IMG/VR virus record: IMGVR_UViG_3300036805_000178
Span: 1 to 62,394 of that record
DNA: 62,394 bases
Origin: a virus
Lineage: Duplodnaviria; Caudoviricetes
Strand: one strand, 5' to 3'
Shown: positions 13,318 through 62,394 of the stretch, piece by piece
Position numbering within the stretch: position 1 is the stretch's first letter
Layout of the letters: each line of letters starts with the position of its first letter
The notes under the pieces: model-generated
Database searches by the model: none
The model's input: only the letters and a program-made list of their open reading frames with translations
Told to the model about the DNA's origin: nothing
Translations under genes and position numbers: made by a program

Positions 13318-14075
13318 GCGGCCGACTCTGCCCCGCACTTGCAGTCGCTCTCGTAATGCCAGCACGGCACGCACACTGCCTCGACGTTGGCCATGAACGT
13401 GTCCAGGTACGGTGCGTCGCTGAGGACCTTGGTGATGTAGGCGACCAGGTCGCGTGCCGGTTTCTTCGGGTTCCCGTACTTGAAGTACAGGCCGAGCACC
13501 TCGCCGTCGGTGAGGTCGTCCGCTTCCTGCTGGCCGTGAATCCTGGCGACCGCTTCGCGAACTTCCGCGATCACTTCATCGGTAGTCCGTTTCGCGCGCG
13601 AGCCGGAGGCTTGCGCCCGTCGGGAGGCCAACTCTTGAGCCATCTCTTGATCTTCAACGTCTTCGGTGACTGTCTTAAGTTTTTTAGCGCCTGATTCACC
13701 GACGCCGGGACTACCGGCGCCTGGAAATCCGTCCTCGGTGGTTATCGGCGCCTCTGACCCGGCCTCCGTCTGCGGCTTGTCGTGAACCGTCACCGTCGTG
13801 TGCCAGTGACCCCGCAAGTCCTGATGCTTCCGCTTGGTCACGTACCCGAGGCTGATCAGCTCGTTGAGCGCGGTGCGGACGGCATCCCGGCCCTCGGGAT
13901 TGTCCTTGGCGAGGTCGGTCGTGGTGACGCGCCATCCCGGCGGAAGGCTGAGCAGGTGGTGGTGCAGGCCGCGCGCCCGGAAGCTGATCCGGGTGTCACG
14001 CGCCTCGGCGTTGCCGATGATCAAAAACTGCTGAGCGTGCCTGCTGCGCTCGATAACGATGCCGTCGTTGGCCAC
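13314..14075 (-). CDS. Replication initiator-like wHTH protein
   Basis: FLIIGNAEARDTRISFRARGL...LLSLPPGW...EGRDAVRTALNELISLGYV, typical phage/ICE rep N-terminus. Confidence 0.75.
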   Translation of the reverse strand: MANDGIVIERSRHAQQFLIIGNAEARDTRISFRARGLHHHLLSLPPGWRVTTTDLAKDNPEGRDAVRTALNELISLGYVTKRKHQDLRGHWHTTVTVHDKPQTEAGSEAPITTEDGFPGAGSPGVGESGAKKLKTVTEDVEDQEMAQELASRRAQASGSRAKRTTDEVIAEVREAVARIHGQQEADDLTDGEVLGLYFKYGNPKKPARDLVAYITKVLSDAPYLDTFMANVEAVCVPCWHYESDCKCGAESAA

Positions 14076-14312: not shown

Positions 14313-15164
14313 CTACAGACTCCCGGCACCCTGGGCGATCATCCGGTACTCGCTCGCTACGCGCTCAATAACTGCCGAACCCGCCGCGCCGTACACGGCA
14401 AGCTCCTCCAGCTCGCCGAACAGCTTGGAGTACTCGGCCACATCATGCGGGTCTGTGATGAACATGGTCCCCGTCCGGATGCCCACGATGACCGTCCGGC
14501 GGTCGTAGACCCAGAATCCGTGCGCGGGGAACACCGTGGCAGCTTGCGACTGGGAAATGATCCCCAGCTGGACGTTCGACCGGGTAGCGATGACCTCGGC
14601 TAGGTGGCCAAGCTGGCCGGTCATTACCTCCGGTGAGCCCGCCTGCCAGCGGAGCGCGCCCTCGGTCACAATGATCCTGAATGCGCGGTCCGAGTCGAGT
14701 GCATCGCCACGTTCCATCCGCTGCGCTACGAGCGCATCCACCTCGTCAGCAGCAATGTCACCGCCCTCTGCGAAGACCAGCCGGGCGTAGTCGGGCGTCT
14801 GCAGCAGGCCGGGGATCACGGCTGGCTGGAATCCGCAGACCTCGGCGGACGCCCTCTCGATCCGGGCGAAGCGCTCCTGCATCTTCACGGTGCCCCGGGA
14901 GATAACCGTCCGGGCCGGAATGGTCTCGGGGCGCAGATCCTTGACCGCCTGCAGTAGGTCGCGGCGAACCTCGGCGCCCGCCCGGTACAGCTTGCACAGC
15001 GCCCGGATGTCGTCATCCTTCGGGAGGAAGCGCCCGGCTTCTATTCGGGAGAGCTTGGGCTGGGAGAAGCCGGCCAGCTTGGCCGCCTGCACGCCGGACA
15101 GTCCGGTCTCTTCGCGCAGGCGGCGCAAGGTACTGGCTAGCCAGTCACGGCCTTCGTCAGGCAA
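14313..15164 (-). CDS. XRE HTH + DUF5753 (Scr1-like) regulator
   Basis: LRRLREETGLSG...KLSRIEAG; IPGLLQTPDYAR; VTEGALRW. Confidence 0.9.
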   Translation of the reverse strand: MPDEGRDWLASTLRRLREETGLSGVQAAKLAGFSQPKLSRIEAGRFLPKDDDIRALCKLYRAGAEVRRDLLQAVKDLRPETIPARTVISRGTVKMQERFARIERASAEVCGFQPAVIPGLLQTPDYARLVFAEGGDIAADEVDALVAQRMERGDALDSDRAFRIIVTEGALRWQAGSPEVMTGQLGHLAEVIATRSNVQLGIISQSQAATVFPAHGFWVYDRRTVIVGIRTGTMFITDPHDVAEYSKLFGELEELAVYGAAGSAVIERVASEYRMIAQGAGSL

Positions 15165-15693
15165 CCCGCCTCCCGGCGCGGTGATGATCTTGGTAGACGC
15201 CGAACGGTATCGCAGCGCGCCAGGCGGCAGCTGCAGCGGCACGGTACCGACTGAGCCCGCTCCGTTCAAACCCGAGGTAACTGCCGCCCGGGCCGTAGTG
15301 CATGACAGCAGCGTCCAAGCCGTCACTCAGCCAGAAGTCCCCGATGCCGTCGAGCTCGGCGGGCTGCGGCTGGTCGGCCAAGTCGAGGATGCGGATGTCC
15401 TCATACGCGAGGTTGTGTGCGTAGCCCCACTCGAACTCATATCGCAGGTAGTCGCTCAGTGGTGACCGGACCACGTGCACGCGGGATGTGGTCACGCCGC
15501 GGTCGAGGTCCGCCTGCAGCACCTTGTGCCATGCAGCCTTCCGCTCCATGTCGGGGCCGCTGTCTCCGCGCAGGTACCGCTGGTAGTCGCCGCCGTCGCT
15601 GCTCACGTCATAGCGGTCGAGCGTCTCAAGGCGGAACAGGGAACGCGCGGCTCCGTCGCAGAACCTGGCGAGCGCCGCCGGGTCAGTCTGCAC
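15157..15693 (-). CDS. DUF6879-family protein
   Basis: SLFRLETLDRY, RVHVVRSPLSDYLRYE, EDIRIL, DFWL. Confidence 0.8.
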   Translation of the reverse strand: MQTDPAALARFCDGAARSLFRLETLDRYDVSSDGGDYQRYLRGDSGPDMERKAAWHKVLQADLDRGVTTSRVHVVRSPLSDYLRYEFEWGYAHNLAYEDIRILDLADQPQPAELDGIGDFWLSDGLDAAVMHYGPGGSYLGFERSGLSRYRAAAAAAWRAAIPFGVYQDHHRAGRRVA

Positions 15694-34984: not shown

Positions 34985-35572
34985 ATGGCCGCACGAACTC
35001 CGCGCAACGGCAGCGGCAAATTCACGCGCACTGCCGAAAGCCGCAAGCGCGACTACCGGGCGGCCGAGCTCCACGGCCAGGGATGGTCCTACCAGCGGAT
35101 CGCCGACGAGATCGGGTTCGCCTCAAAGGGCCACGCGCACGACGCGGTGATGCGCGCCTTCGCCGACATGCCGACCGAAGAGGCAAAGCACGCCCGGGAG
35201 GCAGACCTCGAGCGCCTCGACCGGCTGATCGAGCAGGCGTGGCAGGTGATGCTCACGCCCCACCTGACCGTGAACAACGGCAAGGTGATCCGCCAGTTCG
35301 CCGGCTACGAGCTGCGCCCGGACGGCACCGAGGCCCTGGACGCGGACGGCAAGCGGATCCCGCTGTTCGCCGACGTGCTCGACGACGGTCCGAGGCTGGC
35401 AGCGGTCAACACGATCAAGGGACTGCTCGAACGCCGGGCGAAGATCTTCGGCTACGACGCCCCCGCCAAGTCCCGCATCGAGGTGGTGACGGCGGACATG
35501 ATCGAGTCGCAGATCAGCGAGCTTGAATTCCAGCTGGCCCGTAATGACCCTGCAGATACAGGCGCACCCTGA
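34985..35572 (+). CDS. terS: Terminase small subunit (HTH)
   Basis: GWSYQRIADEIGF HTH; ERRAKIFGYDAP; directly upstream of terL. Confidence 0.8.
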   Translation: MAARTPRNGSGKFTRTAESRKRDYRAAELHGQGWSYQRIADEIGFASKGHAHDAVMRAFADMPTEEAKHAREADLERLDRLIEQAWQVMLTPHLTVNNGKVIRQFAGYELRPDGTEALDADGKRIPLFADVLDDGPRLAAVNTIKGLLERRAKIFGYDAPAKSRIEVVTADMIESQISELEFQLARNDPADTGAP

Positions 35573-37241
35573 CCGGCTGCGCTACCTGCTGGACCTCCAG
35601 CGCAGGGCAGCGCGGATCAAGTCCGGGGTAGCCCGTTACTACGATGACCCGGCTGCGTTTGCCAGTGACTGCATCAACTGGGGCGACGGCGACGGCCTGA
35701 CGTTCTACCAGGAGGAGATCCTGGCAGCCCTGCCGGAGCAGAAGCGGGAGGCTGTAAGAGGACCACATGGATTGGGGAAAAGTTCCCTGTCCGCCATCGC
35801 GGTGCTGTGGTTCGCGCTGACGCGGGACGCGGCCGGGGTCGACTGGAAGGTCGTCACGACCGCCGGGTCATGGCATCAGATTACGCAGTATACCTGGCCT
35901 GAGCTGCATAAATGGGCGGGGAAGCTCCGCTGGGACAAGGTGCGTGACGGGCGCCCGTTCTCCCGCGCCAACGAGCTGCAGAACCTGAACCTGAAGCTGA
36001 ACCACGGGGCTGCGTTCGCTGCCGCATCGGCTAACGCGGCGCTGATCGAGGGCGCGCACGCCGATTCGCTGATGTTCGTCTACGACGAGGCGAAAGCGAT
36101 CCCGGCGGGCACGTTCGACGCGTGCGAGGGCGCGTTCTCCAGTGCCGGGGAGGGCGGCACCGAGGCGTTCGCCCTGGCCCTGTCGACCCCGGGGCAGCCG
36201 CAGGGCCGCTTCTACGACATCTGCAAGCGCAAACCCGGCTACGAGGACTGGCACCCGGTTCACGTCACGCTTGACGACGCCATGGACGCGGGACGCATCA
36301 CCGCAGAGTGGGCCGGGCAGCGGGCCCGCCAGTGGGGGACCGAGTCGGCGATCTACCAGAACCGGGTGCTGGGTGAGTTCTACGCCAGCGACGAGGACTC
36401 GGTGATCCCGCTGGCCTGGGCGGAGGCGGCGGTAGCCCGCTGGCATGCCTGGGAGGAGGCGGGACGTCCGGATACGGGCAGGCCCCGCACGGTCGGAGTG
36501 GACGTCGCCAGGACCGGTTCGGACCGCACGGTGCTCGCGGTCCGCAACGGGCCGGTGATCACCGAACTGCGCCGGTTCACCAAGGAGGACACGATGCAGA
36601 CCACCGGCCGGGTGAAGGCGGTCCTGGACGCTGACGACTCCCGCACCGCCGTGGTCGACGTGATCGGCATCGGCGCCGGCGTGGTCGACCGCCTGCGGGA
36701 ACAGCACGCCCGGGTGGTGGCGTTCAACGCCTCCCGCGGCTCGAAGGCCCGCGACAGCACAAGGGAGTTCACCTACTCGAACCGGCGCAGCGAGGCCTGG
36801 TGGACGATGCGGCAGGCGCTCGACCCGTCCGGCAACCCCGATATCTGCCTTCCGGATGACGAGATGCTCCTCGGTGACCTGTCGGCCCCGCACTGGCTGG
36901 TCACGTCAGGCGGGCGGATCCAGGTTGAGAAGAAGGAAGACATTTACAAGCGCCTCGGCCGGTCAACGGACGACGGCGACAGCGTGATCCAGGCCTTCGT
37001 CCCGCATCTCGGCGAGGGACTGCCGGGCAGCATCCGGAAGTGGGCCGGGGCTGCCGAGCTCGAGGTTACCGGGCAGGGTCAGGATGAGGCGATGCGCCGC
37101 CGCCGCCGGGTTCCCGGCAGCCCTGGCAGTGACCGCCCGGATCCCGAGGACGCCCCGTGGGATGTCGACGGCTTTTCACCGCAGGATGACGGGGAGAAGG
37201 TTGAGAGGAACCGGGGCAATGTCAGGGCGTGGGGACGATAG
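35544..37241 (+). CDS. terL: Terminase large subunit
   Basis: YQ motif, Walker A RGPHGLGKS, Walker B FVYDEA, nuclease GVDVAR..SD.T, RSTDDGDS. Confidence 0.95.
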   Translation: MTLQIQAHPDRLRYLLDLQRRAARIKSGVARYYDDPAAFASDCINWGDGDGLTFYQEEILAALPEQKREAVRGPHGLGKSSLSAIAVLWFALTRDAAGVDWKVVTTAGSWHQITQYTWPELHKWAGKLRWDKVRDGRPFSRANELQNLNLKLNHGAAFAAASANAALIEGAHADSLMFVYDEAKAIPAGTFDACEGAFSSAGEGGTEAFALALSTPGQPQGRFYDICKRKPGYEDWHPVHVTLDDAMDAGRITAEWAGQRARQWGTESAIYQNRVLGEFYASDEDSVIPLAWAEAAVARWHAWEEAGRPDTGRPRTVGVDVARTGSDRTVLAVRNGPVITELRRFTKEDTMQTTGRVKAVLDADDSRTAVVDVIGIGAGVVDRLREQHARVVAFNASRGSKARDSTREFTYSNRRSEAWWTMRQALDPSGNPDICLPDDEMLLGDLSAPHWLVTSGGRIQVEKKEDIYKRLGRSTDDGDSVIQAFVPHLGEGLPGSIRKWAGAAELEVTGQGQDEAMRRRRRVPGSPGSDRPDPEDAPWDVDGFSPQDDGEKVERNRGNVRAWGR

Positions 37242-37461
37242 GCGTCGCGACTAGAAGAGGCGTCCATACCCAGCGAGCGTTCGCGGTATCCCCGGGGCAT
37301 ATGGCCTGAGCGAAACCATGAGGCATCAGACCATCATCCGTCACCTCGCTGTAGTGGCCGCAGGTAAGACACTGCATCTTCAGCACACCGGGACCGAGTC
37401 GCTCTCCGAGATAGGCGGTGAGCAGGTGGGTTATCGTCTGACGCTCCTGCTGGCCACTCAC
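37222..37461 (-). CDS. Small hypothetical protein
   Basis: GTGA coupling to the 37458 gene; CLTC. Confidence 0.4.
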   Translation of the reverse strand: MSGQQERQTITHLLTAYLGERLGPGVLKMQCLTCGHYSEVTDDGLMPHGFAQAICPGDTANARWVWTPLLVATPIVPTP

Positions 37462-37958
37462 TTGAGCGCCTTCCTCTCCCGTTCCCTCCGCTTGCGTACC
37501 CGCGCCGAGCACCGCTGCGAGCAGCACTCGGTATCCGACCGCCCGGCCTCGGTGCGGTAGAACTCCCGCCCGCAGCCGGGGCACGTTTTCAACGGCGGCA
37601 GCGGTGCGGAGCAGTCTGGGCACAGGCTCGCCTCTGCTCTGGCGGCCCGGGCCTGCCGCACCCCTTCCGCCTGAAGTTCACTCCAGTTCGGCGGTGGCCA
37701 ATGAAGGGGATCGTCCGGTGCCGGCGTAGCAAGGTTGTACACCGGCATTTCATCACGGATGGCCCCGGCTTCGGCAGTGAGTGCTGCCAGCCGCGTCGGG
37801 TGCCACTCCACGGTCTTCCGCTCTACCTCTGCCCACCACGGCTTGGACTTGCGGTGCTGCGCCCAGCGCGCTTCGGGATTCTTTGCCACGCCGATGTAAA
37901 GGGGCTGCTGGTCGTTCGCGCCGGCGTAGAGCCGGTATACGGCGGTCGGTACGTCCAC
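37458..37958 (-). CDS. GIY-YIG-like domain plus C-terminal Zn-finger
   Basis: AVYRLY...LYIGVA...RWAQH..SKPWW; CPGCG.EF...CCSQRC. Confidence 0.8.
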   Translation of the reverse strand: MDVPTAVYRLYAGANDQQPLYIGVAKNPEARWAQHRKSKPWWAEVERKTVEWHPTRLAALTAEAGAIRDEMPVYNLATPAPDDPLHWPPPNWSELQAEGVRQARAARAEASLCPDCSAPLPPLKTCPGCGREFYRTEAGRSDTECCSQRCSARVRKRRERERKALK

Positions 37959-37959
37959 G

Positions 37960-37987
37960 GATTCAAGTATACCTGTATACTTGAATC
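37960..37987. promoter_or_regulatory. Palindromic bidirectional promoter/operator
   Basis: GATTCAAGTATAC-CT-GTATACTTGAATC; TATACT on each strand 6-7 nt before each start codon. Confidence 0.8.
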
Positions 37988-38260
37988 ATGGCACGCCCAA
38001 AGACGCCTCAGGGCAGGCGCGTTACCATCTGCGCCAAGGTCAACGAAGCCGAGGCGGCCGCCATTGATCTGGCGCGCGGTGCCGAAGATCTCGGGACATG
38101 GCTGCGTCGCGTCGCTCTCGCGGCTGCCGAGCGGCAGCAGCCGCCTGGCGGTCACGCCGAGCGGCAAAACCAAGCGGGTGCGCAGGGCGACTGCCCGCAC
38201 CCGAAGGCGCGCATCACCAAGGGCCTGTGCAACGCCTGCGGAACCTACGTCGGGAAGTAG
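37988..38260 (+). CDS. RHH/MobC-like regulator with C-terminal Cys motif
   Basis: MARPK...VTICAKVNEAE...LGTWLRRVAL; CPH...CNAC. Confidence 0.7.
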   Translation: MARPKTPQGRRVTICAKVNEAEAAAIDLARGAEDLGTWLRRVALAAAERQQPPGGHAERQNQAGAQGDCPHPKARITKGLCNACGTYVGK

Positions 38261-38501
38261 CCGGAAGGCAAATAATCAAACACGCCCGAGAACACGTACG
38301 TCATCCGGCGGGCGGGCGGGCGAACCGCGAGGCAGTGCAAGACGTGCACGAAGGAGAACAGGACCAGGGGAGCGTGACCTAGCCCGTCCAGGCGCGCTAG
38401 CCTAGGGTCATGCACGTGCATCGGCACGCCGCAAACGCACGTGCATGACCGACTGGCGCCCTCGCGCGCCCTGGGCGACGGGCAGGAGGTGATGCAGGAA
38501 G

Positions 38502-40109
38502 ATGGCATCCGGCAACGCTAATATCATCGCCTTCCCAGATCTTCCGCCGAAGGGTTCTCCCGGCGGCAGCGGAAAGCGGACCCTGATGGGCCCTCAGATT
38601 GGTACCTCATTTGACATGGGGCAGCGCTTGTTCGCCTATTATTTACGGCGAGGGTGACGTCTTCGATTTAAAGAATACGGAGAAACAACTGCCCGGGATC
38701 TGAAATCCATGTTTTCCCGGAACGGCACTGCTTCCGCGCTTGAGTTGGTTCTGACGCTGCCAATTCGCGAGGCCGATTTCAGCATCGAGCCCAGCAAGGG
38801 AGACAAGGGAGAGTGCGATTTTGTGCGCAGTATTCTTCTGACTCCGGACTCGGAAGGCGGCATGCGCACGCCATTCACCACGCTTATTGGCCAGATTACT
38901 TCAGCGCAAATTTACAAGCGCGCTTTCTTTGAGAAGACTTTCAAACAAAGGCCGAGTGACGGCAAAATCGTTTATGACCAGGTCGCCTACCGGCCGCCCG
39001 CTACCTGCCAGGCCAGGTACAACGACAGGTCAGGGGAGCCGAACGGCTTCCGCCAGCAGGTCTGGCTGTTCGGCGGGAACCTGATGCTCACCAGCAAGCA
39101 GAAGGTTCCGGGATACGTTGATATCCCGAAGGTGCGTTCGTATATCTACACCCACGGCCAGCACCGTGAGCCTTTGACGGGCGTATCGGAAATGGAAGTC
39201 ACCTATTGGTGTCACCAGACGTCGATGAAGCTTATGTACCTCTGGCTCCATTTCCTTGAGAACATGGCTTTGCAGCGCCTTGTGGTGTACGGAAATGACC
39301 AGGGGCAGGCGACGCAGCGGGCCGATGACATTTCCCAGCTCCGCGGGTCCGGGGTGGTCGGTATTGAGCAGCCGGAGGCGGGCCAGAAGGCGTTCGAGGC
39401 TATTCCGGCGGATGCGAATGCGGGGCAGTTTTTCCAGTCGGCGCTGGCGTTTCTTCAGAGCTGGTCGATCAGCAGTGTCCTGGCCGGGTTCCTCGGCCTG
39501 GCGTCGGCGTCGACCGGCGGGAAGGGCGCGTACTCGCTCAGCCAGGATCAGAGCGACTTCTACCTGAAGTCCCGGCAGGGGGTGGCGAAGGAGATCGCGG
39601 AGTCGATTTCCTATGACGTGATCCGGCCGCTGGTGCTGCTGAATTTCGGGACGGGCGCGTCGTTCCCGCAGGCGAAGTTCGGGCCGTTGCAGGATGAGCA
39701 GGCGCAGCAGCTCCTGACGATGTTCTCCGCGATGAGCGCGGCCCCGGTGCTGCATGTTCCGCTCCAGGTGTTCGACCTGATCACGGAGCGGATGGCGTCG
39801 ATCCTGCAGCTTGACGTGGACCAGGTGCACGATGCGCTGGTGTCGACCGCGAGCCAGCGGGCGGAGCAGCTGGCGGGCAACCCGCCGCCGGGGATGCCCC
39901 CGGAGGCCGCGGCGGGACTGGGGCAGTTGCAGGGCCTTGCGCATGCGGGAACCGCGATCGCGCAGCAGGCGGCGGCGAAGCAGGCCGGCGGCGGTGTCCC
40001 GGCGGCGCAGGCGCCGCGCGGGCCTCGGATGACGATGCCCGCTGCGGGTCCGCCGAAGCCTCCGCCGGGCATGCCGATGGCCGGCGGGGTACCGGGGGCG
40101 GGCCAGTGA
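38502..40109 (+). CDS. Portal protein; 5' part interrupted by 4-nt and 8-nt coding gaps (uninterrupted ORF 38709-40109)
   Basis: Position between terL and MuF; LTLPIR, AFFEK, SVLAGFLGL..G.YSLS.DQSDF, IRPLVLLNFG; upstream ATG 38502 with SD is in frame but blocked by TGA 38655. Confidence 0.85.
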
Positions 40110-43656: not shown

Positions 43657-43841
43657 GCGCCCGTGTCATCGCCGCGCTGCGCAGGCGCGCAGACGTGCTG
43701 GAAACTGACGCGGACACCCGGGCCGGCCTGTCCCGGCACATCACCACTATCTCGGCGGCAATGACGGTGAGTCCAGGGCTGCTGCAGTTCCTCGCCGCCG
43801 AGTTCCGCGAGTTGGCCGATGAAGCCGAAGGAGCGTCATGA
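43653..43841 (+). CDS. Hypothetical protein
   Basis: ATGA overlaps. Confidence 0.55.
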   Translation: MSARVIAALRRRADVLETDADTRAGLSRHITTISAAMTVSPGLLQFLAAEFRELADEAEGAS

Positions 43842-46081
43842 CCGCCGCCGCACCCGAAGCCCCGCCCGCATCCCGTTCCCGCCGGACGGTTCCGCTGACC
43901 CCGATGCGGGTCCAGGCGGCACAGTCGATGTCGAGGCTTGCCGACCACCTGCACCAGTCCGACCCGGGCCAGCCCGCGCACCAGCACGTCCGCGACGCGG
44001 CGAGGATGCTCCGGGCAGGGAACGAGGAAGCCGCGCAGCGGCACCTGCGGGCCGCCATTTTCTCCCTCACGCCCCAGTCGCTGATGCGGCAGGGCCTGCA
44101 CACCGACGACGCCCACAATGCCGCCAGGGGGGCTATGCATGGGGTGCACCGGCATCTCCTGCTGGTCAAGGACATCGCGGACACGGCGGAGAAGAACCGG
44201 GCGGCGATCCGCCGTGACTCCGGCGGCGACAACCCGGCGCCCCTGCCGCCGCGCCCCCCGGTGCAGCCGGACCCGAACGCCGGGTTCGGCCCGGGTGCGC
44301 TCGCCCAGAAACCGACTGTCCGCCAGCCCCCGGGGGACCGGGCGCTGAACGCCCCGCCGCGGACGAACAGCGGGGGCAGCGACCCGGCTGTTGCGGACCC
44401 GAACGGGCCGCAGCCGGCGGGAAGCAGGCAGTTCGCCTACGGATGGGACGACCTGGCAGCGGTCATTGAGCTGGCGAACCGCCCAAAAGTCATTGAACTG
44501 GTAGGCCCTCACGGATTTATCCATGACTGGATTTTTATCGGTGTCCCCGGGCCCGGCCAGGAAGTATCCCACCCGCAGCACGGGCACGGTGTCGTCACCA
44601 GCGCTGACAGCGGCCACGTCCAGGTGAGTTTCGACAGCGGGCACTCCGCGTCGTTCCCTGTCCGCGCGCAGCAGGGCCCCGGCCACTTCGAGCAGATGAC
44701 CGACGCCGAACTGGGAGAGGAGTACAACCGCAGCCAGGGAAGCCGTCTCAACGCCGTCGTCAGCGAACTGGACCGCCGCGACCAGCGTGACGAGGACACG
44801 GCAACCCAGGAGAAGGCCCGGCGGGTCAGTGCCCTGTACGCCGAGCAGCCGAAAACCGAAGCCGACCAGAACCGCGTGTACCAGGGGCTGGTAAACGAGG
44901 GCGAGAGCGCCGAGGACGCGTGGGCGCACACCCACGGCACTAATGCCGGGGCGATGGCGAGGCAGTCGGCGATCCAGCAGCTGCGCACGCAGGGTTACAC
45001 GGGCAGCGGTTTCGACGCGCTCACCCGCGCCGCGTACAAGGATGACATCCGCCGCCGCACCGTCATGGCGGAGAACGCCACCAACGGCTACATGCTCAGC
45101 CCGGCAGGCAAGAAGGCGGGCATTGAGCCGTACTCGCTGTTCACCGGGCCGGAGTCGAGAGCGAGGAAGTACGCCAGCCCCGAACTGAAGGAGTGGTTCG
45201 ACCAGAACGGGCGCCCGACTGCCGCGGATTTCCAGGCGCAGATGACGGGGCAGAAGACCGGCACCGGCCCGCGCGATTTTTACGCTTCGGTCACCTGGGA
45301 CGACCTTGCCCGGGTGGTCGAGCTGACCGGCGACGGCCACGGTAATCATGTAGCCGGTACACAGATGGTGTACGGCCACGGCTGGAGGCCGCTCTCGGGC
45401 TCTGCTGTCGGCAAGGATGGTATTCGCAGGCCGGGCGGCACGGGAGAACGGGGAAAGGCCGGCGGGATCTTCACTAACCCGCACCCGGCCAGCAAGCTCA
45501 CCGTCTCCTCCAATCCCAGGGCGGCGGCCGAGAACGCGCTCCGCGGGGACGCGGCCTACGGTCACGTGCCCGAGCCGGCCGGCAAGAAGGAGCAAGCCGC
45601 GGCGGACTATTACTCCGTAGCGAGCGGGAGACTCAACCCGGCACTGCGCAGCGGCACCAGGCTGACAGACAAGACCGACAGGATGCAGGTCCGCAACCTG
45701 GAGTCCGCGTTCGCTAAGGCACCCCCGACAACGCAGCACATTGTTGCCTACCGGGGCACCACCGGGGCACTGTTCGGCAAAGGGGACGCGACCGGCACCC
45801 AGTTCACCGACAAGGGCTTCACCAGCGTGTCAGCGGACCAGAAGCAGGCGGGCATGTTCGGTTCCGAGGCGGACCCGGCGCTGATGGAAATCCACGTCCC
45901 CGCCGGGAGCAGGGTCGTCAAGCCCGGCGCCGCCGGGCACTACAGCGAGGGTGACGACGCCGAGAAGGAACTGGTCCTCAACCACGGCGGCCGGTACGAG
46001 ATCACCAGCGACCAGATGGTCAGCGACCCGGAGCTAGGCCAGATCCGGAAACTGACCGCGACCTACAGGGGGTCAGCATGA
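43838..46081 (+). CDS. Multidomain head-associated protein with C-terminal VIP2-like ADP-ribosyltransferase
   Basis: YY...LNPALR, AYRG, GFTSVS, MEIHVPAGS, EKELVL (R-S-E triad). Confidence 0.85.
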   Translation: MTAAAPEAPPASRSRRTVPLTPMRVQAAQSMSRLADHLHQSDPGQPAHQHVRDAARMLRAGNEEAAQRHLRAAIFSLTPQSLMRQGLHTDDAHNAARGAMHGVHRHLLLVKDIADTAEKNRAAIRRDSGGDNPAPLPPRPPVQPDPNAGFGPGALAQKPTVRQPPGDRALNAPPRTNSGGSDPAVADPNGPQPAGSRQFAYGWDDLAAVIELANRPKVIELVGPHGFIHDWIFIGVPGPGQEVSHPQHGHGVVTSADSGHVQVSFDSGHSASFPVRAQQGPGHFEQMTDAELGEEYNRSQGSRLNAVVSELDRRDQRDEDTATQEKARRVSALYAEQPKTEADQNRVYQGLVNEGESAEDAWAHTHGTNAGAMARQSAIQQLRTQGYTGSGFDALTRAAYKDDIRRRTVMAENATNGYMLSPAGKKAGIEPYSLFTGPESRARKYASPELKEWFDQNGRPTAADFQAQMTGQKTGTGPRDFYASVTWDDLARVVELTGDGHGNHVAGTQMVYGHGWRPLSGSAVGKDGIRRPGGTGERGKAGGIFTNPHPASKLTVSSNPRAAAENALRGDAAYGHVPEPAGKKEQAAADYYSVASGRLNPALRSGTRLTDKTDRMQVRNLESAFAKAPPTTQHIVAYRGTTGALFGKGDATGTQFTDKGFTSVSADQKQAGMFGSEADPALMEIHVPAGSRVVKPGAAGHYSEGDDAEKELVLNHGGRYEITSDQMVSDPELGQIRKLTATYRGSA

Positions 46082-50781: not shown

Positions 50782-51693
50782 ATGCCGGTCGGCGCACGGG
50801 GATACAGTGATGGCCCCAGAATCACCGTCAACGAGCTCCTGAAAGACCCCCTGGTCATCCCGGCGCTCATCCTCGACATCACCCAGAACGAGTTCATCAT
50901 GGACTCCGTTCTGCGGATGGGCGGCGCTGCCCCCTCCGGCGCGGTCCGCTACTCGGAGTCGACGCCGCTGTACGCGGACGACTTCCCGGAGATCCGGGCG
51001 GAGTTCGGCGAGGTCCCGGTCGTGCCGACCTCGATCGGCACCCCGCGGGTCGTGTTCTCCCACGAACGCGCGATGGCGATCATGGTGTCGGACGAGATGC
51101 GCCGCCGGCAGGCCATCGACCCCGTGACCCGGCAGCTGATGCAGGTCAAGAACACGATGGTCTACTCGTGGAACACCGCGTTCTACAGCGCGGTGGTCGC
51201 CAACGCCAACATCCAGACCCTGGCGGTGGCCAACCCGTGGGCCTCGGCCGCGTCGACGATCCGCGCTGACCTCGCCCAGGCCGTGTACCTGGTCGAGAAC
51301 GCCAACATCGTGTCCCCCAACGGGGTCACCCAGTGGCTCGGCTTCGAAGCCGACACGCTGATCATCAACCACGGCACCAAGAACACCCTCCTGCAGTCCA
51401 GTACGTTCGCCGCCCCGTACATCGGCGACATCGCCTCGGAGAACCTGCAGTACACCGGCACCCTGCCGCAGAAGATCTTCAACCTCGACGTGCTCGTGTC
51501 CCGGCAGGTCCCCGCGGGCAACGCGATCATCATGCAGCGGCAGCGGGCCGGCTTCTACGCCGACGAGCTCCCGTTCGTCGCCGGACCCCTTTACCGGGAT
51601 GAGCCCCGAAAGGTCTTCCGGTCGGACACACAAAGGGCATCAGCCATCGGATTGGACCAACCCGCCGCAATTGCGCTTTTGAGCGGCGTCTGA
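50782..51693 (+). CDS. Major capsid protein
   Basis: 303 aa after protease/decoration; ITVNELLKDP, AEFGEVPV, ASAIGLDQPAAIALLSG. Confidence 0.85.
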   Translation: MPVGARGYSDGPRITVNELLKDPLVIPALILDITQNEFIMDSVLRMGGAAPSGAVRYSESTPLYADDFPEIRAEFGEVPVVPTSIGTPRVVFSHERAMAIMVSDEMRRRQAIDPVTRQLMQVKNTMVYSWNTAFYSAVVANANIQTLAVANPWASAASTIRADLAQAVYLVENANIVSPNGVTQWLGFEADTLIINHGTKNTLLQSSTFAAPYIGDIASENLQYTGTLPQKIFNLDVLVSRQVPAGNAIIMQRQRAGFYADELPFVAGPLYRDEPRKVFRSDTQRASAIGLDQPAAIALLSGV

Positions 51694-53998: not shown

Positions 53999-54271
53999 AT
54001 GGCCGCGAACCCGAGGATCGTCCGCGAGACCGTCACCGTCACCTGGGACGGGGGACCGCAGCGGCTCGTCAAGGGCCAGGTCATCGATGTGCCCCCCGGC
54101 TCCGCGCTCGAGCAGGCGATCGGCGCGGGCCGGCTGGAGCCGCTGTTCCGGCCCGGGTCAACCGCGATCGCCCCGCAAGCCGAAGCTGAGGAGGACACGG
54201 GCACCCAGGCACCCGCGGCCCGCAAGAGGGCACCGCAGGACAAGGACAGCGACGAGAAGGGCACCCCATGA
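53999..54271 (+). CDS. Small virion-associated protein
   Basis: KGQVIDV...AIGAGRL, similar to the 49990 protein. Confidence 0.7.
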   Translation: MAANPRIVRETVTVTWDGGPQRLVKGQVIDVPPGSALEQAIGAGRLEPLFRPGSTAIAPQAEAEEDTGTQAPAARKRAPQDKDSDEKGTP

Positions 54272-54462
54272 CTACCCCTGCCCCCCAGCCTGCCGTCACC
54301 CCCGGGGTGTGGACGCTGCGCCGGATCCTGCTCGCCGTCAGCGCCGCCTTGTTCGTCATCGCCGCGTTCGCCGCCGGCGGCGACGAGATCGGGGACATTA
54401 CTGCCTGGACGTGGGGTTTCGCCGGGTTCGCCGCCTGGGTGCTGTCCGGGGCGGTGCCGTGA
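54268..54462 (+). CDS. Small two-TM membrane protein
   Basis: Two hydrophobic segments. Confidence 0.6.
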   Translation: MTTPAPQPAVTPGVWTLRRILLAVSAALFVIAAFAAGGDEIGDITAWTWGFAGFAAWVLSGAVP

Positions 54463-55004
54463 CCACCCCGGCCGCGTCGGGCACGCTGTACGCCACCGTG
54501 CAGGACCTGGTCCTGAGCGTGTCCGGCACCGACTCCGGAATAGGTACTCCCGCGCAGCTGACATCCGCGCAGCTTGAGCTTGCCCTGTACCGGGCGAGCA
54601 ACACCGTCAGCGTGTACGCGGGCAGCATCTACGACAACTCGACCCCGCAGGCGAGCCCGCCGGGCATCCTGCATGACCTGGCACTCGACCTGGCCGGGTT
54701 CTGGGCGTGGCGCACCTACCTCAAGGGCAAGGAAATCCCGGCCACCCACCCGGCCTACATCGCCTACCAGAACGCGATGCAGATGCTGGAGGCGGTCCGG
54801 ACCGGCCAGATCGTGCTCGACGTGGCGGCCGCCCCCGGTGTCGGCGCGGAGGTCGGCACCGTGATCAACCGGCTCCCGCGGGTCTTCACCGGCGAAGACT
54901 CGAACACGCGCCTCGGGAATGACGGAATCCTCGAGGCGGACAGCCCGTTCTGGACGCCCCGCACGGGCGGCCTTTTCGGCGACGGAGAGGTCTACCAGGG
55001 GTGA
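54459..55004 (+). CDS. Head-tail adaptor (Mu gp36-like)
   Basis: YATVQDL...AL..AS..V..Y...P..L..LA.DLA...YQNAMQMLEAV..G.I.L. Confidence 0.75.
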   Translation: MTTPAASGTLYATVQDLVLSVSGTDSGIGTPAQLTSAQLELALYRASNTVSVYAGSIYDNSTPQASPPGILHDLALDLAGFWAWRTYLKGKEIPATHPAYIAYQNAMQMLEAVRTGQIVLDVAAAPGVGAEVGTVINRLPRVFTGEDSNTRLGNDGILEADSPFWTPRTGGLFGDGEVYQG

Positions 55005-58189: not shown

Positions 58190-61100
58190 ATAGCGTTCGA
58201 TGCGGGCGCCATCGAGAGCCGCCTCACGATCGACACGTCGGCTTTCGACCGTGACCTGGATGCGGCAAAGGCAAAGGTTGATGCCTTCAGCAAAGACGGT
58301 CATCAGGTAAAGATCTCCGCCGTCTTCGATTCCGCGTCGCTGTCGAAAGCCACGAGCATGTTCGCGCAGCTCGACAACGCGATCTCCAAGGACGCGATGA
58401 ACCGCCTGCGGTCCTCCCCGCAGGGGTCGGTCCTCGGCTCGCTGAACGCCCTGTTCTCCCCGCACCCGGTGACCGGCGCCCCGTCCCCGTCGCAGTCCTC
58501 GCAGCAGGGGCTGCTCGGGCAGATGGTCAACGGCCCGTCCGGGAGCACCGGGGCCGGGGGCGGTGCCGCCAGCAGCAGCACGAGTCCGCTCGGCAGCGTC
58601 CTGGCGCAGAACGCTAACACCACCGACAACATCCGCCAGAACCTTGTCGGCACGGGCCCGGCTGACGCGAACACCACCGACACCATCGCGCAGAAACTGA
58701 CCGGCACCGGCGCGCAGGATGTCACCACCACCGACACGATCCGGCAGAACGTGACGGGCGCGGGCCCGAAAGACACCACGACCACCGACACGGTCAAGGA
58801 GAAACTCGACCCGGCGTCGGCCGCCAAGACAGAAAGCGACTCCGGGGCCAGCGGCGGCCGGTCCGGCGCGTCGTTCAGCTCGATGTTCACCAGCCACATC
58901 AAGAACCTGCTGCCCAAGTCGGCGACCGACACCGCGGAGAAGGCGGCCGGGGACTCGGGGAACAAGTCGGGTGCCAACATGGGCAAGGGGCTGCTGGCCG
59001 GCATCGGCCCCGGCATCCTCGGCATCGGCCTGAAGATGAGCAGCATCGTCGGCCTGGGCGGGGCGGCCCTGGGCGCGCTGCCGGCCGTGGCCGGGCTGGC
59101 CGGGACCGGCATGGGGGTCGCCCTGATCGGCGGGATCACCGCCGTCGTCACCAAGGGAGCCATCAGCGCGGTACAGCCTGCGGTCACGGCATTCCAGGCG
59201 CTCCAGAACGCAGCCCCGGGGGCCGCCCAGGTTACCGCGCTGAAGAACTACCAGGCGGCACTTGCACAGCTCACCCCCGCGCAGAAATCGCTCGCCACGT
59301 CCCTGGAGGGCATGCAGGGTGCCTGGCAGAACTTCATTAAGTCGAACACGGCCGGGGTATCGCAGATTCTCAGCGGCGGCATGGGGCTGCTGCCCGGCAG
59401 CCTCTCGTCGATGTCCGGGGTGTTCCAGGCAGTCGTCCCGCAGATGGCATCGGTCTTCCGGAGCCTCGACGGGGTGATCCAGGGGGTCCTCAGCGTAGCG
59501 AAGACCGCCGTCCCCGCGTTCGCGCCGTTCATCAACGCGATCCTCGGCCTTGTCACCAACATCCTGCCCGGCATCAACACCGTCATCAAGGCCACCATCC
59601 CGTTTATCGGCCAGTTTTCCGCGACCCTGGGCACGCTCGGCAAGGACCTGGGCGGCCTGTTCGCCACGGCCGCCCCCGCCATCGGCGCGTCAATGAAAAT
59701 CCTCACCGACCTGCTCGGGCTGATCGGCGGGCTGCTGCCGGTCGTCATGAAACTCGCGGACGTCTTCGCGACCGCCCTGGCCCCCGTGTTCACCGCGTTC
59801 GGGCAGACCATCGTGGCCCTGGAGCCGGCGCTGCTCCTGGTCGGCGGCGTCATCTCCTCCCTTGCCGGGGCCATCATCGGCGACCTGGTGGCCGCGTTCA
59901 GTGCGCTGGCCACCCTGGCCAAGGCCGCCGCACCCGGGCTGAACACCCTCGCGAAGGCGCTCGGCGGCGTGTTCACCACCCTGGAGAACTCCGGGGTGTT
60001 CGCGATCCTCGGCGACGCCCTGGAGAACCTGGCCGGGCCGCTCGGCAAACTCATCTCGTCCCTGGCAACCGACCTCGCCCCCGTCCTGCCGCAGGTCGTC
60101 AGCCTGATCGCCCAGCTCGCCGGCATCATCACCAGTACGCTGACCCAGGCCATCGGGGCGATCCTCCCGCCGCTGACGAGGCTCGCCGGGGCGGTCCTCG
60201 GCGCGGTCGTGGCGGTCATGCCGCAGATCGTCAAGGCGATCCTCGCCCTGGCGCAGGCACTGCTGTCCCCCGGCATGATCACCGCCGTCACCGACCTCGT
60301 CACGCAGCTCGCGGACCTCATCGCCAAGGTCGCGCCGTCGGTCATCACGACGATCGCCGCCGCGGTCCTCGCCATCGTGCAGGCGATCCCGACCGGCGCC
60401 GTCGTCAGCGTGCTGGCCTCGATGGTCGAGGCCCTGGCGAACCTGATCGCCAAGGTCCCCGCGTCGGTCCTGACCGCCATCGCCCTGGGCGCCCTGGCCA
60501 TCGCCGCGGCCGTGAAAATCTGGGCCGTCGCCCAGGCGATCCTGAACATCGCACTGGACGCCAACCCGGTCGTGCTCCTCGGCGTGGCCATCGCCGGACT
60601 CGCGGTCGGCATCACCGAACTGGTCACCCACTGGTCCGCGGTCTGGGCCGCCATCAAGTCGGCCGCCGCCGACGCCTGGAACTTCATCTGGGGCGGCATC
60701 GGGAAGTACCTGCTGCCGCTGCTCGGCCCGGCCGGCCTGATCGCCCTGGGGGTGATCGAGCTGGCGCAGCACTGGACCCAGATCTGGGGCGGCATCAGGA
60801 CCGTCGTCAGCGGGGTGCTGACGTGGCTGACGACGGTGTTCGGAACCGACCTGTCCGGGTTCTTCACCAAGACGGTCCCCGGCTGGCTGAGTGCGGCCGC
60901 GGGGTTCTTCACCAGCAAGTTCGCCGCCCCGGTGGAGAACGGTCTGAAGGCCGCACTGACCTGGATCGGCGCCAACTTCGTCACCCCGGTCGGCAACTTC
61001 TTCACCAAGACGATCCCCGGCTACTGGACCGCGGCGATCGCGTTCCTGAAGTCCGACTTCGTCACCCCGGTGGAGAACAGCCTGAAGGCGGTGTGGAGCT

Positions 61101-62394
61101 GGATCGGCGCCAACTTCGGGGCCCCGGTCAACACGTTTTTCACCAAGACCCTGCCCGGTTACTGGACCAGCGCCATCGGCTTCCTGGGATCGAAGTTCGT
61201 TACCCCGGCCGAAAACGACCTCAAGGCCGTGTGGAGCTGGATCCAGGCCAACTTCGGGGCGCCGGTGAACAACTTCTTCACCAAGACGCTGCCCGGCTAC
61301 TGGACCTCGGCAATCAGCTTCCTCGGGTCAAAGTTCGTTACGCCGTTCCAGAACGCCCTGAAGGGCGCCTACACCTGGGTCGTCAAGAACGTCGCCGACC
61401 CGATCCAGACGCTGTTCACCAAGACCCTGCCCGGCTGGTTCCAGACCGCGGTCAGTGACATCGGCAAGTTCTGGAAGGGCGTCGAGAGCATCGTCCAGAC
61501 GCCGGTCAAGTTCGTGGTCAACAGCGTCCTGAACCCGATCGGGCAGACGTTCGACGCCATCACCAGTGCGCTCGGCCTCGGAAAGCCCATCCCCGCGCTG
61601 AAGATGGCCGGCGGCGGGCTGCTGCCCGGCTACGGCGGCGGCGACACCGTGCCCGCCCTCCTCGAGCCAGGGGAGACCGTTGTTGACAAGGACAAAAGCA
61701 AGCTGCTGGCGGGGATCTTCAAGGCGGCCGGCGTCCCCGGCTACGCGGCCGGCGGGATCATCCCCAGCTGGCTCAGCACCGCCCTCGGCGGACTGATCCC
61801 CGGGGCAGTGCCGGCGGTGACCGGCCTGCCCAGCGGCGGCCTGGCCGCCGTGCTGGACAAGCTCGGCAAGTTCCTCGGGCTGGGCACCGGCGGGGCCGGC
61901 GGGGACGTGAAAAGCATCCTCGCCGCCATGGGCAAGCAGACGGTCAGCGACGTGATGTCCTGGCTGACCGGCAAGACCGCCGCGGCCTCCGGATCGTCAG
62001 TCCCGGGGGGCACGGCCGGGGCCGGGGTGCAGCAGTGGAAAGGCGTCGTCGACCAGGCCCTGAAGATGCTGGGCCTGCCCGCGTCGCTAGAGGCCCAGGT
62101 GCTTTACCAGATGCAAACAGAATCCGGCGGAAATCCGAACGCCATCAACCTCACCGACAGCAACGCCGCGGCCGGTGACCCGTCCAGGGGCCTCCTGCAG
62201 ACCATCATGACCACGTTCCAGGCGTACCACGTGCCCGGGACCAGCGGCAACATCTACGACCCGCTCGCGAACGTGGCTGCCGCGATCAACTACGCCGAGC
62301 ACGTGTACGGGCCGACCCTGATGTCCGGCGGCATGGGCATGGGCTCCGGGCACGGGTACGGCAACGGCGGCACGGTCACCGAGCCGGTGCTCGG
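58190..62394 (+). CDS. Tape measure protein with C-terminal lytic transglycosylase (runs off right edge; apparent ATA start)
   Basis: Same frame at both ends; ANP.VL, GGGD.VPALLEPGE.V; TESGGNPNAINL.DSNA..G.PSRGLLQ...YDPLAN. Confidence 0.9.
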   Translation, partial: MAFDAGAIESRLTIDTSAFDRDLDAAKAKVDAFSKDGHQVKISAVFDSASLSKATSMFAQLDNAISKDAMNRLRSSPQGSVLGSLNALFSPHPVTGAPSPSQSSQQGLLGQMVNGPSGSTGAGGGAASSSTSPLGSVLAQNANTTDNIRQNLVGTGPADANTTDTIAQKLTGTGAQDVTTTDTIRQNVTGAGPKDTTTTDTVKEKLDPASAAKTESDSGASGGRSGASFSSMFTSHIKNLLPKSATDTAEKAAGDSGNKSGANMGKGLLAGIGPGILGIGLKMSSIVGLGGAALGALPAVAGLAGTGMGVALIGGITAVVTKGAISAVQPAVTAFQALQNAAPGAAQVTALKNYQAALAQLTPAQKSLATSLEGMQGAWQNFIKSNTAGVSQILSGGMGLLPGSLSSMSGVFQAVVPQMASVFRSLDGVIQGVLSVAKTAVPAFAPFINAILGLVTNILPGINTVIKATIPFIGQFSATLGTLGKDLGGLFATAAPAIGASMKILTDLLGLIGGLLPVVMKLADVFATALAPVFTAFGQTIVALEPALLLVGGVISSLAGAIIGDLVAAFSALATLAKAAAPGLNTLAKALGGVFTTLENSGVFAILGDALENLAGPLGKLISSLATDLAPVLPQVVSLIAQLAGIITSTLTQAIGAILPPLTRLAGAVLGAVVAVMPQIVKAILALAQALLSPGMITAVTDLVTQLADLIAKVAPSVITTIAAAVLAIVQAIPTGAVVSVLASMVEALANLIAKVPASVLTAIALGALAIAAAVKIWAVAQAILNIALDANPVVLLGVAIAGLAVGITELVTHWSAVWAAIKSAAADAWNFIWGGIGKYLLPLLGPAGLIALGVIELAQHWTQIWGGIRTVVSGVLTWLTTVFGTDLSGFFTKTVPGWLSAAAGFFTSKFAAPVENGLKAALTWIGANFVTPVGNFFTKTIPGYWTAAIAFLKSDFVTPVENSLKAVWSWIGANFGAPVNTFFTKTLPGYWTSAIGFLGSKFVTPAENDLKAVWSWIQANFGAPVNNFFTKTLPGYWTSAISFLGSKFVTPFQNALKGAYTWVVKNVADPIQTLFTKTLPGWFQTAVSDIGKFWKGVESIVQTPVKFVVNSVLNPIGQTFDAITSALGLGKPIPALKMAGGGLLPGYGGGDTVPALLEPGETVVDKDKSKLLAGIFKAAGVPGYAAGGIIPSWLSTALGGLIPGAVPAVTGLPSGGLAAVLDKLGKFLGLGTGGAGGDVKSILAAMGKQTVSDVMSWLTGKTAAASGSSVPGGTAGAGVQQWKGVVDQALKMLGLPASLEAQVLYQMQTESGGNPNAINLTDSNAAAGDPSRGLLQTIMTTFQAYHVPGTSGNIYDPLANVAAAINYAEHVYGPTLMSGGMGMGSGHGYGNGGTVTEPVL
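60860..61445 (+). repeat. 138-nt (46-aa) tandem repeats in the tape measure gene
   Basis: FFTKT(V/I/L)PG(W/Y) recurs near 60860, 60998, 61136, 61274 and 61412. Confidence 0.85.

Follow-up and report, generated by a model that had tools for sequence, protein, structure and literature searches.

How does a phage make a complete portal protein from a gene whose reading frame is broken twice near its 5′ end? The question is raised by IMG/VR record IMGVR_UViG_3300036805_000178, a metagenomic contig of 62,394 base pairs (bp) from a virus of the Caudoviricetes, which over its whole length is called the window below (~69% G+C, range 0.62–0.75). Its Portal_Mu-type portal gene consists of three coding segments separated by gaps of 4 and 8 nucleotides (nt), each of which opens with an in-frame TTA (Table 1). 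The answer that we favour, at a probability of roughly 0.78, is that the portal is made by two successive ribosomal hops triggered by UUA. The Tyr transfer RNA (tRNA) would move from UAU to UAC, over 4 nt, and the Asp-tRNA from GAU to GAA, over 8 nt. A translational bypass of this type had been put forward in an original prediction made from the letters of the window, and the comparative analysis described here supports it, as the anatomy of bypassing recurs across 31 gapped loci in a build like that of the phiHau3 terminase.

Read without skipping, the frame that opens at ATG 38502 runs TAT(38637) TAT(38640) TTA(38643) CGG CGA GGG TGA(38655–57), giving a product of just 51 amino acids (aa). 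When the first gap is passed over, decoding resumes at GGC 38647 and reaches the second take-off codon, GAT 38665–67. When the second gap is passed over as well, decoding resumes at TAC 38676 and the spliced reading adds up to 47 + 7 + 477 = 531 codons. If the second UUA is decoded instead, the frame closes at TGA 38701–03. Because the gaps sum to 4 + 8 = 12 nt, TGA 38655 is the sole obstacle in frame 0; ATG 38709, the called start of a 466-aa open reading frame (ORF), is in the same frame as ATG 38502. Rereading the sequence confirmed all coordinates of the original prediction, including the 51-aa and 531-aa products, together with its statements that decoding of either UUA ends at a stop (TGA 38655–57 or TGA 38701–03) and that both gaps end in a triplet with which the P-site tRNA could re-pair. 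A GGAG-rich box followed by the start ATG GCA TCC is also found in three relatives (L002, L006 and L010). The third segment matches the Pfam model PF06074 Portal_Mu (E-value 2.3e-24; 86.8 bits against a cut-off of 23.9), and its coverage by homologues is 100%.

The events that we propose are as follows. Peptidyl-tRNA-Tyr on UAU 38640–42 would meet UUA in the A site and the ribosome would stall; UUA is presumably poorly served in a high-GC actinobacterial host. During the stall the peptidyl-tRNA would unpair, the messenger RNA (mRNA) would slip by 4 nt and the tRNA would re-pair on UAC 38644–46, from where decoding would restart at GGC. Seven codons on, peptidyl-tRNA-Asp on GAU 38665–67 would meet another UUA and, after an 8-nt slide, re-pair on GAA 38673–75, with a restart at UAC. 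Ribosomes that decode the first or the second UUA would terminate after 4 or 12 further codons, respectively. The two landing triplets, UAC (+4) and GAA (+8), are the first near-cognate triplets beyond UUA. A Shine–Dalgarno (SD)-like sequence, GAGGGTGA (38650–57), lies 8–15 nt 5′ of the second take-off codon and also encodes the conserved GEGD codons.

That the three segments belong to one protein is best seen in the uninterrupted homologues. All nine of the full-length homologues that we printed (501–557 aa; P0022, P0023, P0030, P0031, P0035, P0038, P0045, P0057 and P0113) are contiguous over the motif GQRLFAYYG[ED]GDVFDYG. The spliced reading of the window reproduces this motif, while the peptide obtained by reading straight through in frame 0 resembles none of the homologues. 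A frameshift-aware protein-to-DNA alignment against uninterrupted homologues also recovered both gap sites unprompted. Hence two expectations of the original prediction, that homologous portals read the junction contiguously and that the window holds one portal gene with two TTA-led coding gaps, were borne out. The portal of the cultured Streptomyces phage Intolerant (gp7) is a single 511-aa ORF directly after the terminase; its alignment begins at residue 10 and spans the gap region at 36% identity. The closest cultured match has 37% identity, and the nearest cultured relatives infect Streptomyces. Read-through of TGA 38655, or its decoding as selenocysteine, was considered and rejected, the frame-0 peptide being unlike the conserved motif.

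The original prediction had asked whether relatives carry other gaps that begin with TTA, and they do. One hundred related loci were fetched, and the 5′ region of the portal gene was aligned for 95 of these plus the window. Left out were L008, whose match starts at residue 178, L098–L100, at 26–28% identity, and L026, which has too little upstream DNA. Collapsing 23 duplicates and dropping L009, whose N-terminus could not be aligned, left 72 distinct loci. The gap placements of L003 and L013 were reset by eye, and a 'ccca' artefact at the end of the L097 alignment was removed. Coding gaps turn out to be common: 31 of the 72 distinct loci carry 59 of them, 3–19 nt long and one to four per gene, and 41 loci are gapless. 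Nearly all of the gaps (58/59) begin with one of three triplets, read in the frame of the preceding segment: TTA (51), TGA (4) or TAG (3).

The sites are partly shared. At the first gap site of the window, 13 other loci have ttat, ttag, tagttac, tagttag, tgaac, tgac, tgattaa or tagtcaac. At the second site, L015 has ttaagaa and L057 has ttaattgaa; with the window this makes lengths of 7, 8 and 9 nt, all ending in GAA. Gap length is thus free at the second site of the window, and the landing triplet is fixed. A further five gaps lie within the portal body between AFF and EK, at about codon 85 of the called ORF (...YRRAFF/EKTF..., with the slash at the gap). These take the form TTC [tta NNN ggtc] GAG, are 8 or 10 nt long, and are found in L056, L057, L059, L092 and L095, being the sole gap in L059. 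It is because of this portal-body gap that some database portals are called at 397 aa. In L060 a bare in-frame TTA stands after ...GTQF, between TTC and GAC in an invariant stretch; it can be read as an extra Leu or as a 3-nt hop, and no gap could be smaller.

The distribution of the gaps across the family suggests a dynamic history. We built a FastTree phylogeny of 62 portal bodies, omitting ten loci whose translation from the internal Met is shorter than 300 aa (L006, L010, L011, L012, L056, L057, L059, L092, L095 and L097), which stems from contig ends, body-site gaps or an offset fault. In this tree the clade of the window comprises 19 rows, 18 of them gapped and only L005 intact. Three of the other 43 rows are gapped (L045, L060 and L072), each beside intact sisters. 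The gapped or intact state requires at least five changes on the tree. Because the sites also differ between near relatives within the clade of the window, we conclude from these sequences that the portal gaps have often been gained, lost or moved.

The gaps share a signature that fits bypassing. The usual opening triplet, TTA, is hardly used, making up 4 of 16,700 codons in the ORFs of the window that were selected on their G+C content at third codon positions (GC3). The usual closing triplet resembles the codon before the gap: in 42 of 47 distinct gaps it matches the take-off codon at two or three of the three positions. When take-off and landing triplets were paired at random 10,000 times, the mean was 12.2 matches and the maximum 22. 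As an offset control we scored triplets that end 1, 2 or 3 bases earlier, and here the matches fell to 4/39, 0/31 and 1/23, compared with 37/39 at the true end. This is not the work of a single codon pair, as six families of take-off codons each have their own matching landing triplets: ACC or ACT with ACC; CAA with CAA; TAT or TAC with TAC, TAT, TAG or TAA; TTC with GTC, CTC, ATC or TTT; GAT with GAA; and GGN with GGC or GGA. Family-wide, the landing triplet is the first match of at least two in three beyond the trigger in 32 of 50 distinct combinations, which is only moderately supportive.

The interior of the gaps is also informative. Of the gaps with a length of 1 mod 3, 26/34 hold a stop in the +1 frame, mostly through TTAA or TTAG, and three of the six in-frame gaps contain a stop. 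Because the gaps hold these stops, neither simple frameshifting nor straight reading is workable in many relatives. Furthermore, gap length varies by one base between portals that are 87% identical, a change that would be fatal under frameshifting and neutral under hopping.

Several observations count against hopping. Thirteen of the 50 distinct combinations of take-off codon, gap and next codon have an earlier partial match inside the gap. In 6/59 gaps the landing triplet matches the take-off codon at just one of three positions, and the 19-nt gap of L056 has no opening trigger codon in the placement that we chose. The local RNA structure over 38610–38720 is not significant (z-score −1.22; 26 of 200 shuffled sequences fold as well). 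The mechanistic steps set out above are inferred from gene anatomy and sequence comparison. Finally, both gaps of the window can formally be read by frameshifting, and neither path meets a stop.

This last point leads to a rival decoding, that of two programmed frameshifts, with a +1 shift at UAU_UUA_C followed by a −1 tandem slip on U_UUA_AAG. In the +1 shift a hungry UUA would occupy the A site and the arriving Tyr-tRNA would read UAC. The product would carry one extra Tyr and an extra Leu-Lys-Glu. Slippery heptamers for −1 frameshifting follow the rule X_XXY_YYZ, and T_TTA_AAG at the second gap (38667–73) fits this rule in the incoming frame. That said, the two shifts make opposite demands on the same codon, as the −1 slip requires UUA to be decoded and the +1 shift requires it not to be. 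The heptamer is also absent from the same site in L015 and L057, while the landing GAA is kept there. At the first site, the ttag of L022, L055 and L092 turns the +1 codon into a stop, and stops likewise block the 26 of 34 gaps in the +1 class that were noted above. Moreover, the junctions are invariant in intact homologues, an argument also used against frameshifting in phiHau3 (PMC10732093). Two frameshifts are therefore an improbable explanation. A different rival concerns purpose. In the reading put forward by the original prediction, the two UUA hops would act together as a selected AND-gate: the portal would be synthesised only while charged Leu-tRNA(UAA) is in short supply, and virion output would thereby be tied to host development. 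In favour of this, both gaps of the window open with UUA, a codon that is nearly absent from the genes of this phage; no tRNA gene that could override the gate was found in the window; and the same logic has been proposed for the phiHau3 terminase (PMC10732093). In relatives, however, TAG or TGA takes the place of TTA in seven of the 59 gaps, and neither codon can respond to a Leu-tRNA. The number and positions of gaps shift between close relatives, one clade member (L005) does without them, and the gaps co-occur with nuclease genes, which are described below. Nor was an integrase or lysogeny switch identified among the 24 window ORFs scanned with PHROGs, though there is a repressor-like protein with a helix-turn-helix (HTH) at 14316–15326 on the minus strand. 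A selected gate is thus unlikely, although it is less improbable than frameshifting.

Two further accounts would do away with recoding altogether. In one of them the portal starts at Met 38709 (466 aa), and the 51-aa ORF with the intervening stretch is a decaying remnant or a separate small gene. Gene callers do choose the internal Met in the window, as they do for 29 of its 33 nearest database relatives (75–88% identity, called at 420–468 aa), and the Portal_Mu model begins at residue 8 of this ORF. The short calls in relatives equally indicate that the interrupted form is widespread. The upstream segments, however, are under strong purifying selection. Over 30 gapped loci in the spliced reading, the segment 5′ of the gaps has a nonsynonymous divergence (pN) of 0.16 and a synonymous divergence (pS) of 0.68, with a ratio of nonsynonymous to synonymous rates (dN/dS) of 0.10. 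The first 25 codons of the called ORF have pN 0.21, pS 0.61 and dN/dS 0.19. The stretch between the two gaps has pN 0.05 and pS 0.79, and here dN/dS is not computable as pS is saturated. Every piece of the spliced reading is thus under purifying selection in the gapped loci. This includes the seven codons between the gaps, which are probably translated as a continuation of the upstream piece, because their protein is conserved and synonymous change saturated although they stand in a different frame from either neighbour. At 38502 both start codon and SD have been kept, whereas no SD-like sequence was found ahead of 38709. Met 38709 is internal in all full-length homologues, and the N-terminal segment is kept down to 36% identity in a cultured phage. 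Random decay would not place TTA or a stop at the opening of 58 of 59 gaps, and the phage element itself is not decayed, because its large structural genes are long intact ORFs. An internal start is therefore very hard to defend. In the other account, the gaps are assembly or sequencing indels, or the inserts are removed from the mRNA before translation. Short indels are indeed a common assembly error, but a second, independent assembly, of a public soil run, is identical over 38300–39049 with no indel at a depth of 8.4, and because of this identity at the portal 5′ region we exclude an assembler artefact. The run is probably the source sample, and so this comparison, made with contigs only, is not one of independent biology. 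In addition, about 30 contigs from many metagenome assemblies carry differing gaps of the same design, and we know of no RNA-processing system for inserts of 3–19 nt without conserved ends. Of all the explanations considered we find this one the least credible. The original prediction had listed indels, decay and homologues that lack the N-terminal segment as signs that it was wrong; none of these was seen.

Hopping at UUA is not without precedent, and the case named in the original prediction, a phage terminase, does exist in print. Two UUA-led blocks of 10 nt in the large terminase gene of phiHau3 (g6/g7/g8) were proposed to be bypassed by Smith et al. 2013 (via Antonov et al. 2023, PMC10732093), and similar gaps are found in two Streptomyces prophages; in all, only 3 of 100 terminase genes have such blocks (PMC10732093). 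With UUA changed to UAA, expression in E. coli yielded a junction peptide, the full-length product was detected in Streptomyces, and a +1-frame stop inside the gap doubled recoding (PMC10732093). This last effect fits with the natural +1 stops that are so frequent in the portal gaps. We read the phiHau3 gaps (L101) directly as GGC [ttactccggt] AAG at 2614–2623 and TCT [ttaacggtcc] ACG at 2924–2933. The likeness is close: a packaging gene of a high-GC actinophage, UUA after the take-off codon, a short gap that ends in a synonymous or near-cognate triplet, two gaps, and invariant junctions. The differences are also clear. In phiHau3 the gene is a terminase with gaps of 10 + 10 nt, whereas the window has a Mu-type portal with 4 + 8 nt and belongs to an unrelated, uncultured lineage. 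Gaps affect 31/72 portal loci compared with 3/100 terminases, there are up to four per gene, and some are led by stops. A link to homing nucleases, suggested for the portal family, is not met with in the consulted parts of PMC10732093.

The commonest portal gap among the relatives, ttaacgggtc (also ttaacggctc), shares its first seven bases with phiHau3 ttaacggtcc, though gene and phage are unrelated, and many of the 10-nt portal gaps read tta-NNN-g plus the landing triplet. The shared ttaacgg start could reflect a spacer preference or a common origin. Another candidate from the actinophages is the pair of primase genes 50/51 of mycobacteriophage Bxb1, which may be joined by a frameshift or by a UUA-linked bypass (PMC12646305). 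Our literature searches, which included metagenomes, found no publication on bypassing in portal genes; in the consulted parts of PMC10732093, 'portal' occurs only as 'GEO portal'. As far as these searches reach, the closest known counterparts of the portal gaps are those of the terminases.

The bypass of T4 gene 60 reportedly lies within a MobA homing-endonuclease element, a finding credited to Bonocora et al. in 2011. As is proposed for the portal gaps, it involves pairing of the P-site tRNA at take-off and landing and a slow A-site codon; as in the window, its gap is near the 5′ end of a conserved essential stretch, downstream of a free-standing endonuclease gene. Unlike the portal gaps, it has a 50-nt gap, identical GGA codons, a UAG trigger, a stem-loop at take-off and a nascent-peptide signal. 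The portal gaps are 3–19 nt long, mostly UUA-led and several per gene, with no significant structure and no sequence homology to T4. On these sequence comparisons the portal gaps are not members of a T4 gene 60-type cassette and would share with it only the principle of tRNA re-pairing. The T4 case is also the parallel for a possible link between gaps and nucleases. The 50-nt insert travels with MobA and shields its carrier from cleavage while leaving the conserved protein unchanged, and some metagenomic relatives of T4 gene 60 have a GIY-YIG gene in place of MobA (Manning & Atkins, bioRxiv 10.1101/2022.08.31.505936).

Two further systems are worth comparing. Short hops within the reach of the portal gaps are known from the laboratory. 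Weiss et al. in 1987 and Gallant et al. in 2003 are said to have described them in E. coli, at low levels, where a codon is hungry or a stop. These resemble the proposed portal hops in that the ribosome, held up by an A site that is slow to fill, jumps forward by a few nt to a cognate triplet close by. They are low-efficiency laboratory constructs or errors, whereas the portal hops would be a fixed part of an essential gene, one that a whole phage clade has conserved. By analogy, such short hops at hungry or stop codons are the likely mechanistic basis of the portal gaps. The other system comprises the Byp inserts of Lang et al. 2014, which reportedly are 27–55 nt long with GC-rich hairpins. 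These are found in the mitochondria of Magnusiomyces capitatus (Lang et al. 2014, via PMC10732093), and resemble the portal gaps in their many inserts per genome or gene, in having a landing codon that matches the take-off codon, and in an A-site codon that is slow or has no assignment. They differ in being mitochondrial, much longer and unrelated in sequence.

The portal gene sits in a packaging and head module, with the terminase upstream and the MuF-like protein, major head protein, adaptor and tape measure downstream (Table 1). In the MuF-like protein of 747 aa, a MuF/head-maturation region is followed towards the C-terminus by a match (2.5e-10) to a PHROG labelled ADP-ribosyltransferase, a layout that resembles gp8/gp9 of Streptomyces phage Intolerant. 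Among 105 TTA sites listed for the window we found no clear case of a second TTA-led gap elsewhere, using GC3 and open-frame heuristics that are non-exhaustive: one of these failed to recover even the portal site, and in another ordinary gene ends dominated the output. The stretch 38411–38447, which separates the GIY-YIG gene from the portal start, holds the palindrome ATGCACGTGCAT twice, at a spacing of about 25 nt, and L005 has a similar box ahead of its portal. Possible roles for this pair are those of a late promoter, operator or terminator.

Table 1. Coordinates of the portal gene, its coding segments and gaps, and other features of the window
Feature	Position	Strand	Remarks
Shine–Dalgarno-like AGGAGG	38484–38489	+	12 nt before ATG 38502
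Portal segment 1	38502–38642	+	47 codons, Met to second Tyr of FAYY; take-off codon 1 is TAT 38640–42
Coding gap 1, TTAC	38643–38646	+	UUA in A site; landing UAC 38644–46, fully cognate for Tyr-tRNA
Portal segment 2	38647–38667	+	GGC GAG GGT GAC GTC TTC GAT, 7 codons GEGDVFD, +1 frame relative to segment 1
Coding gap 2, TTAAAGAA	38668–38675	+	UUA in A site; landing GAA 38673–75 matches GAU at 2/3 positions
Portal segment 3	38676–40109	+	477 codons plus stop 40107–09; holds internal Met 38709
Portal_Mu-type portal (whole gene)	38502–40109	+	three coding segments, two gaps
GIY-YIG-type endonuclease, free-standing	37461–37958	−	166 aa; C-terminal Cys-rich zinc-ribbon-like tail; in terminase–portal spacer
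Large terminase subunit	35523–37241	+	intact, 572 aa; phrog_2 terminase large subunit, E-value 5.9e-35
MuF-like head morphogenesis/protease protein	43838–46081		747 aa; PHROGs scan
Major head protein	50782–51693		
Adaptor	54087–55004		
Tape measure	58358–62392		runs off window end
HTH repressor-like/DNA-binding proteins	14316–15326 and 13317–14075	−	phrog_9908, 1.1e-44; phrog_37920, 6.5e-17

If ribosomes do hop over these gaps, then why are the gaps there at all? One clue lies in the spacer between terminase and portal, which in the window is 1.26 kilobases (kb) long and holds a GIY-YIG gene 544 nt upstream of the portal on the opposite strand. This gene matches PF01541 (E-value 8.4e-5; 23.2 bits against a cut-off of 22.6) and two endonuclease families, phrog_3312 (2.6e-17) and phrog_16880 (3.4e-14), and a homologue is also found upstream of the gapped portal of L053. 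An alternative candidate for the spacer gene, a 234-aa ORF at 37701–38405 on the plus strand, was discarded: it is Arg/Pro-rich, looks like a wrong frame and has no Pfam or PHROG match, the real gene being the GIY-YIG gene on the minus strand.

The upstream context was compared across the 61 loci with at least 1 kb of upstream DNA (39 intact and 22 gapped), by clustering the ORFs and annotating one representative per cluster. In 26/39 intact loci no more than 250 nt separate terminase and portal, but this is so in just 2/22 gapped loci. Three kinds of nuclease cluster were recognised upstream: HNH/NUMOD3 in nine loci, HNH/endonuclease VII-like in five and GIY-YIG in two. Together these clusters cover 12 loci, every one of which is gapped, and none of the 39 intact loci carries such a nuclease. 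L060 and L072, which are independent gap gains inside an otherwise intact clade, both carry the HNH/NUMOD3 gene.

Other results speak against this link. A raw Fisher test of the nuclease association gives p 1.2e-5 but ignores relatedness, and a phylogeny-aware test, with only five independent pairs, is not significant: two to four pairs point the same way and none the other way (p ~0.25). A recognisable nuclease is present in 10 of the 22 gapped loci with at least 1 kb upstream and absent from the other 12. L045 is gapped though its terminase is directly adjacent, and 13/39 intact loci also hold inserts, annotated as Lsr2-like, Ro60/TROVE or unknown. We regard the association of nucleases and gaps as a lead, not a result. 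As a separate observation, L062 and L063 have a gene for a Ro60/TROVE-vWA RNA-binding protein (Pfam 1.3e-51) between the terminase and an uninterrupted portal.

With this in mind we tentatively suggest, at somewhat less than even odds, that free-standing homing-type endonuclease genes just upstream of the portal brought the gaps in, or keep them there. The inserts would break the recognition site of the nuclease in an invariant coding stretch and leave the protein unchanged. We consider such a selfish-element origin because some gaps are led by stops, their number varies and there is the nuclease link. Were portal yield to depend on the supply of Leu-tRNA(UAA), this would then follow from the gaps without having to be their selected function. 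More speculatively still, hopping at UUA and stop codons might be what lets actinophages place nuclease-blocking inserts in essential genes, with the gaps as immunity marks or repair scars. Such inserts would survive only if opened by a slow codon and ended by a landing triplet, and sensitivity to Leu-tRNA(UAA) would have come as a side effect, perhaps put to use by some phages.

Translational bypassing is among the rarest departures from standard decoding, and the published case for its short, UUA-led form consists of three terminase genes and a limited set of experiments (PMC10732093). On the comparative evidence, it is well supported that the portal gene would be a further case of this sparsely documented recoding, in a different essential gene and within a large natural series. 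The 59 gaps, of 47 builds, would form a natural set of mutants from which the rules of short bypassing can be read: a slow A-site codon, a free length of 3–19 nt, a near-cognate landing triplet and, frequently, a stop in the +1 frame. There are practical implications too. Annotators of high-GC phages should be aware that portals called about 65 codons short may be whole, and a heterologous host in which UUA is read well would not express genes of this kind correctly. Finally, the portal family makes it possible to test, outside T4, whether selfish nucleases and recoding are linked.

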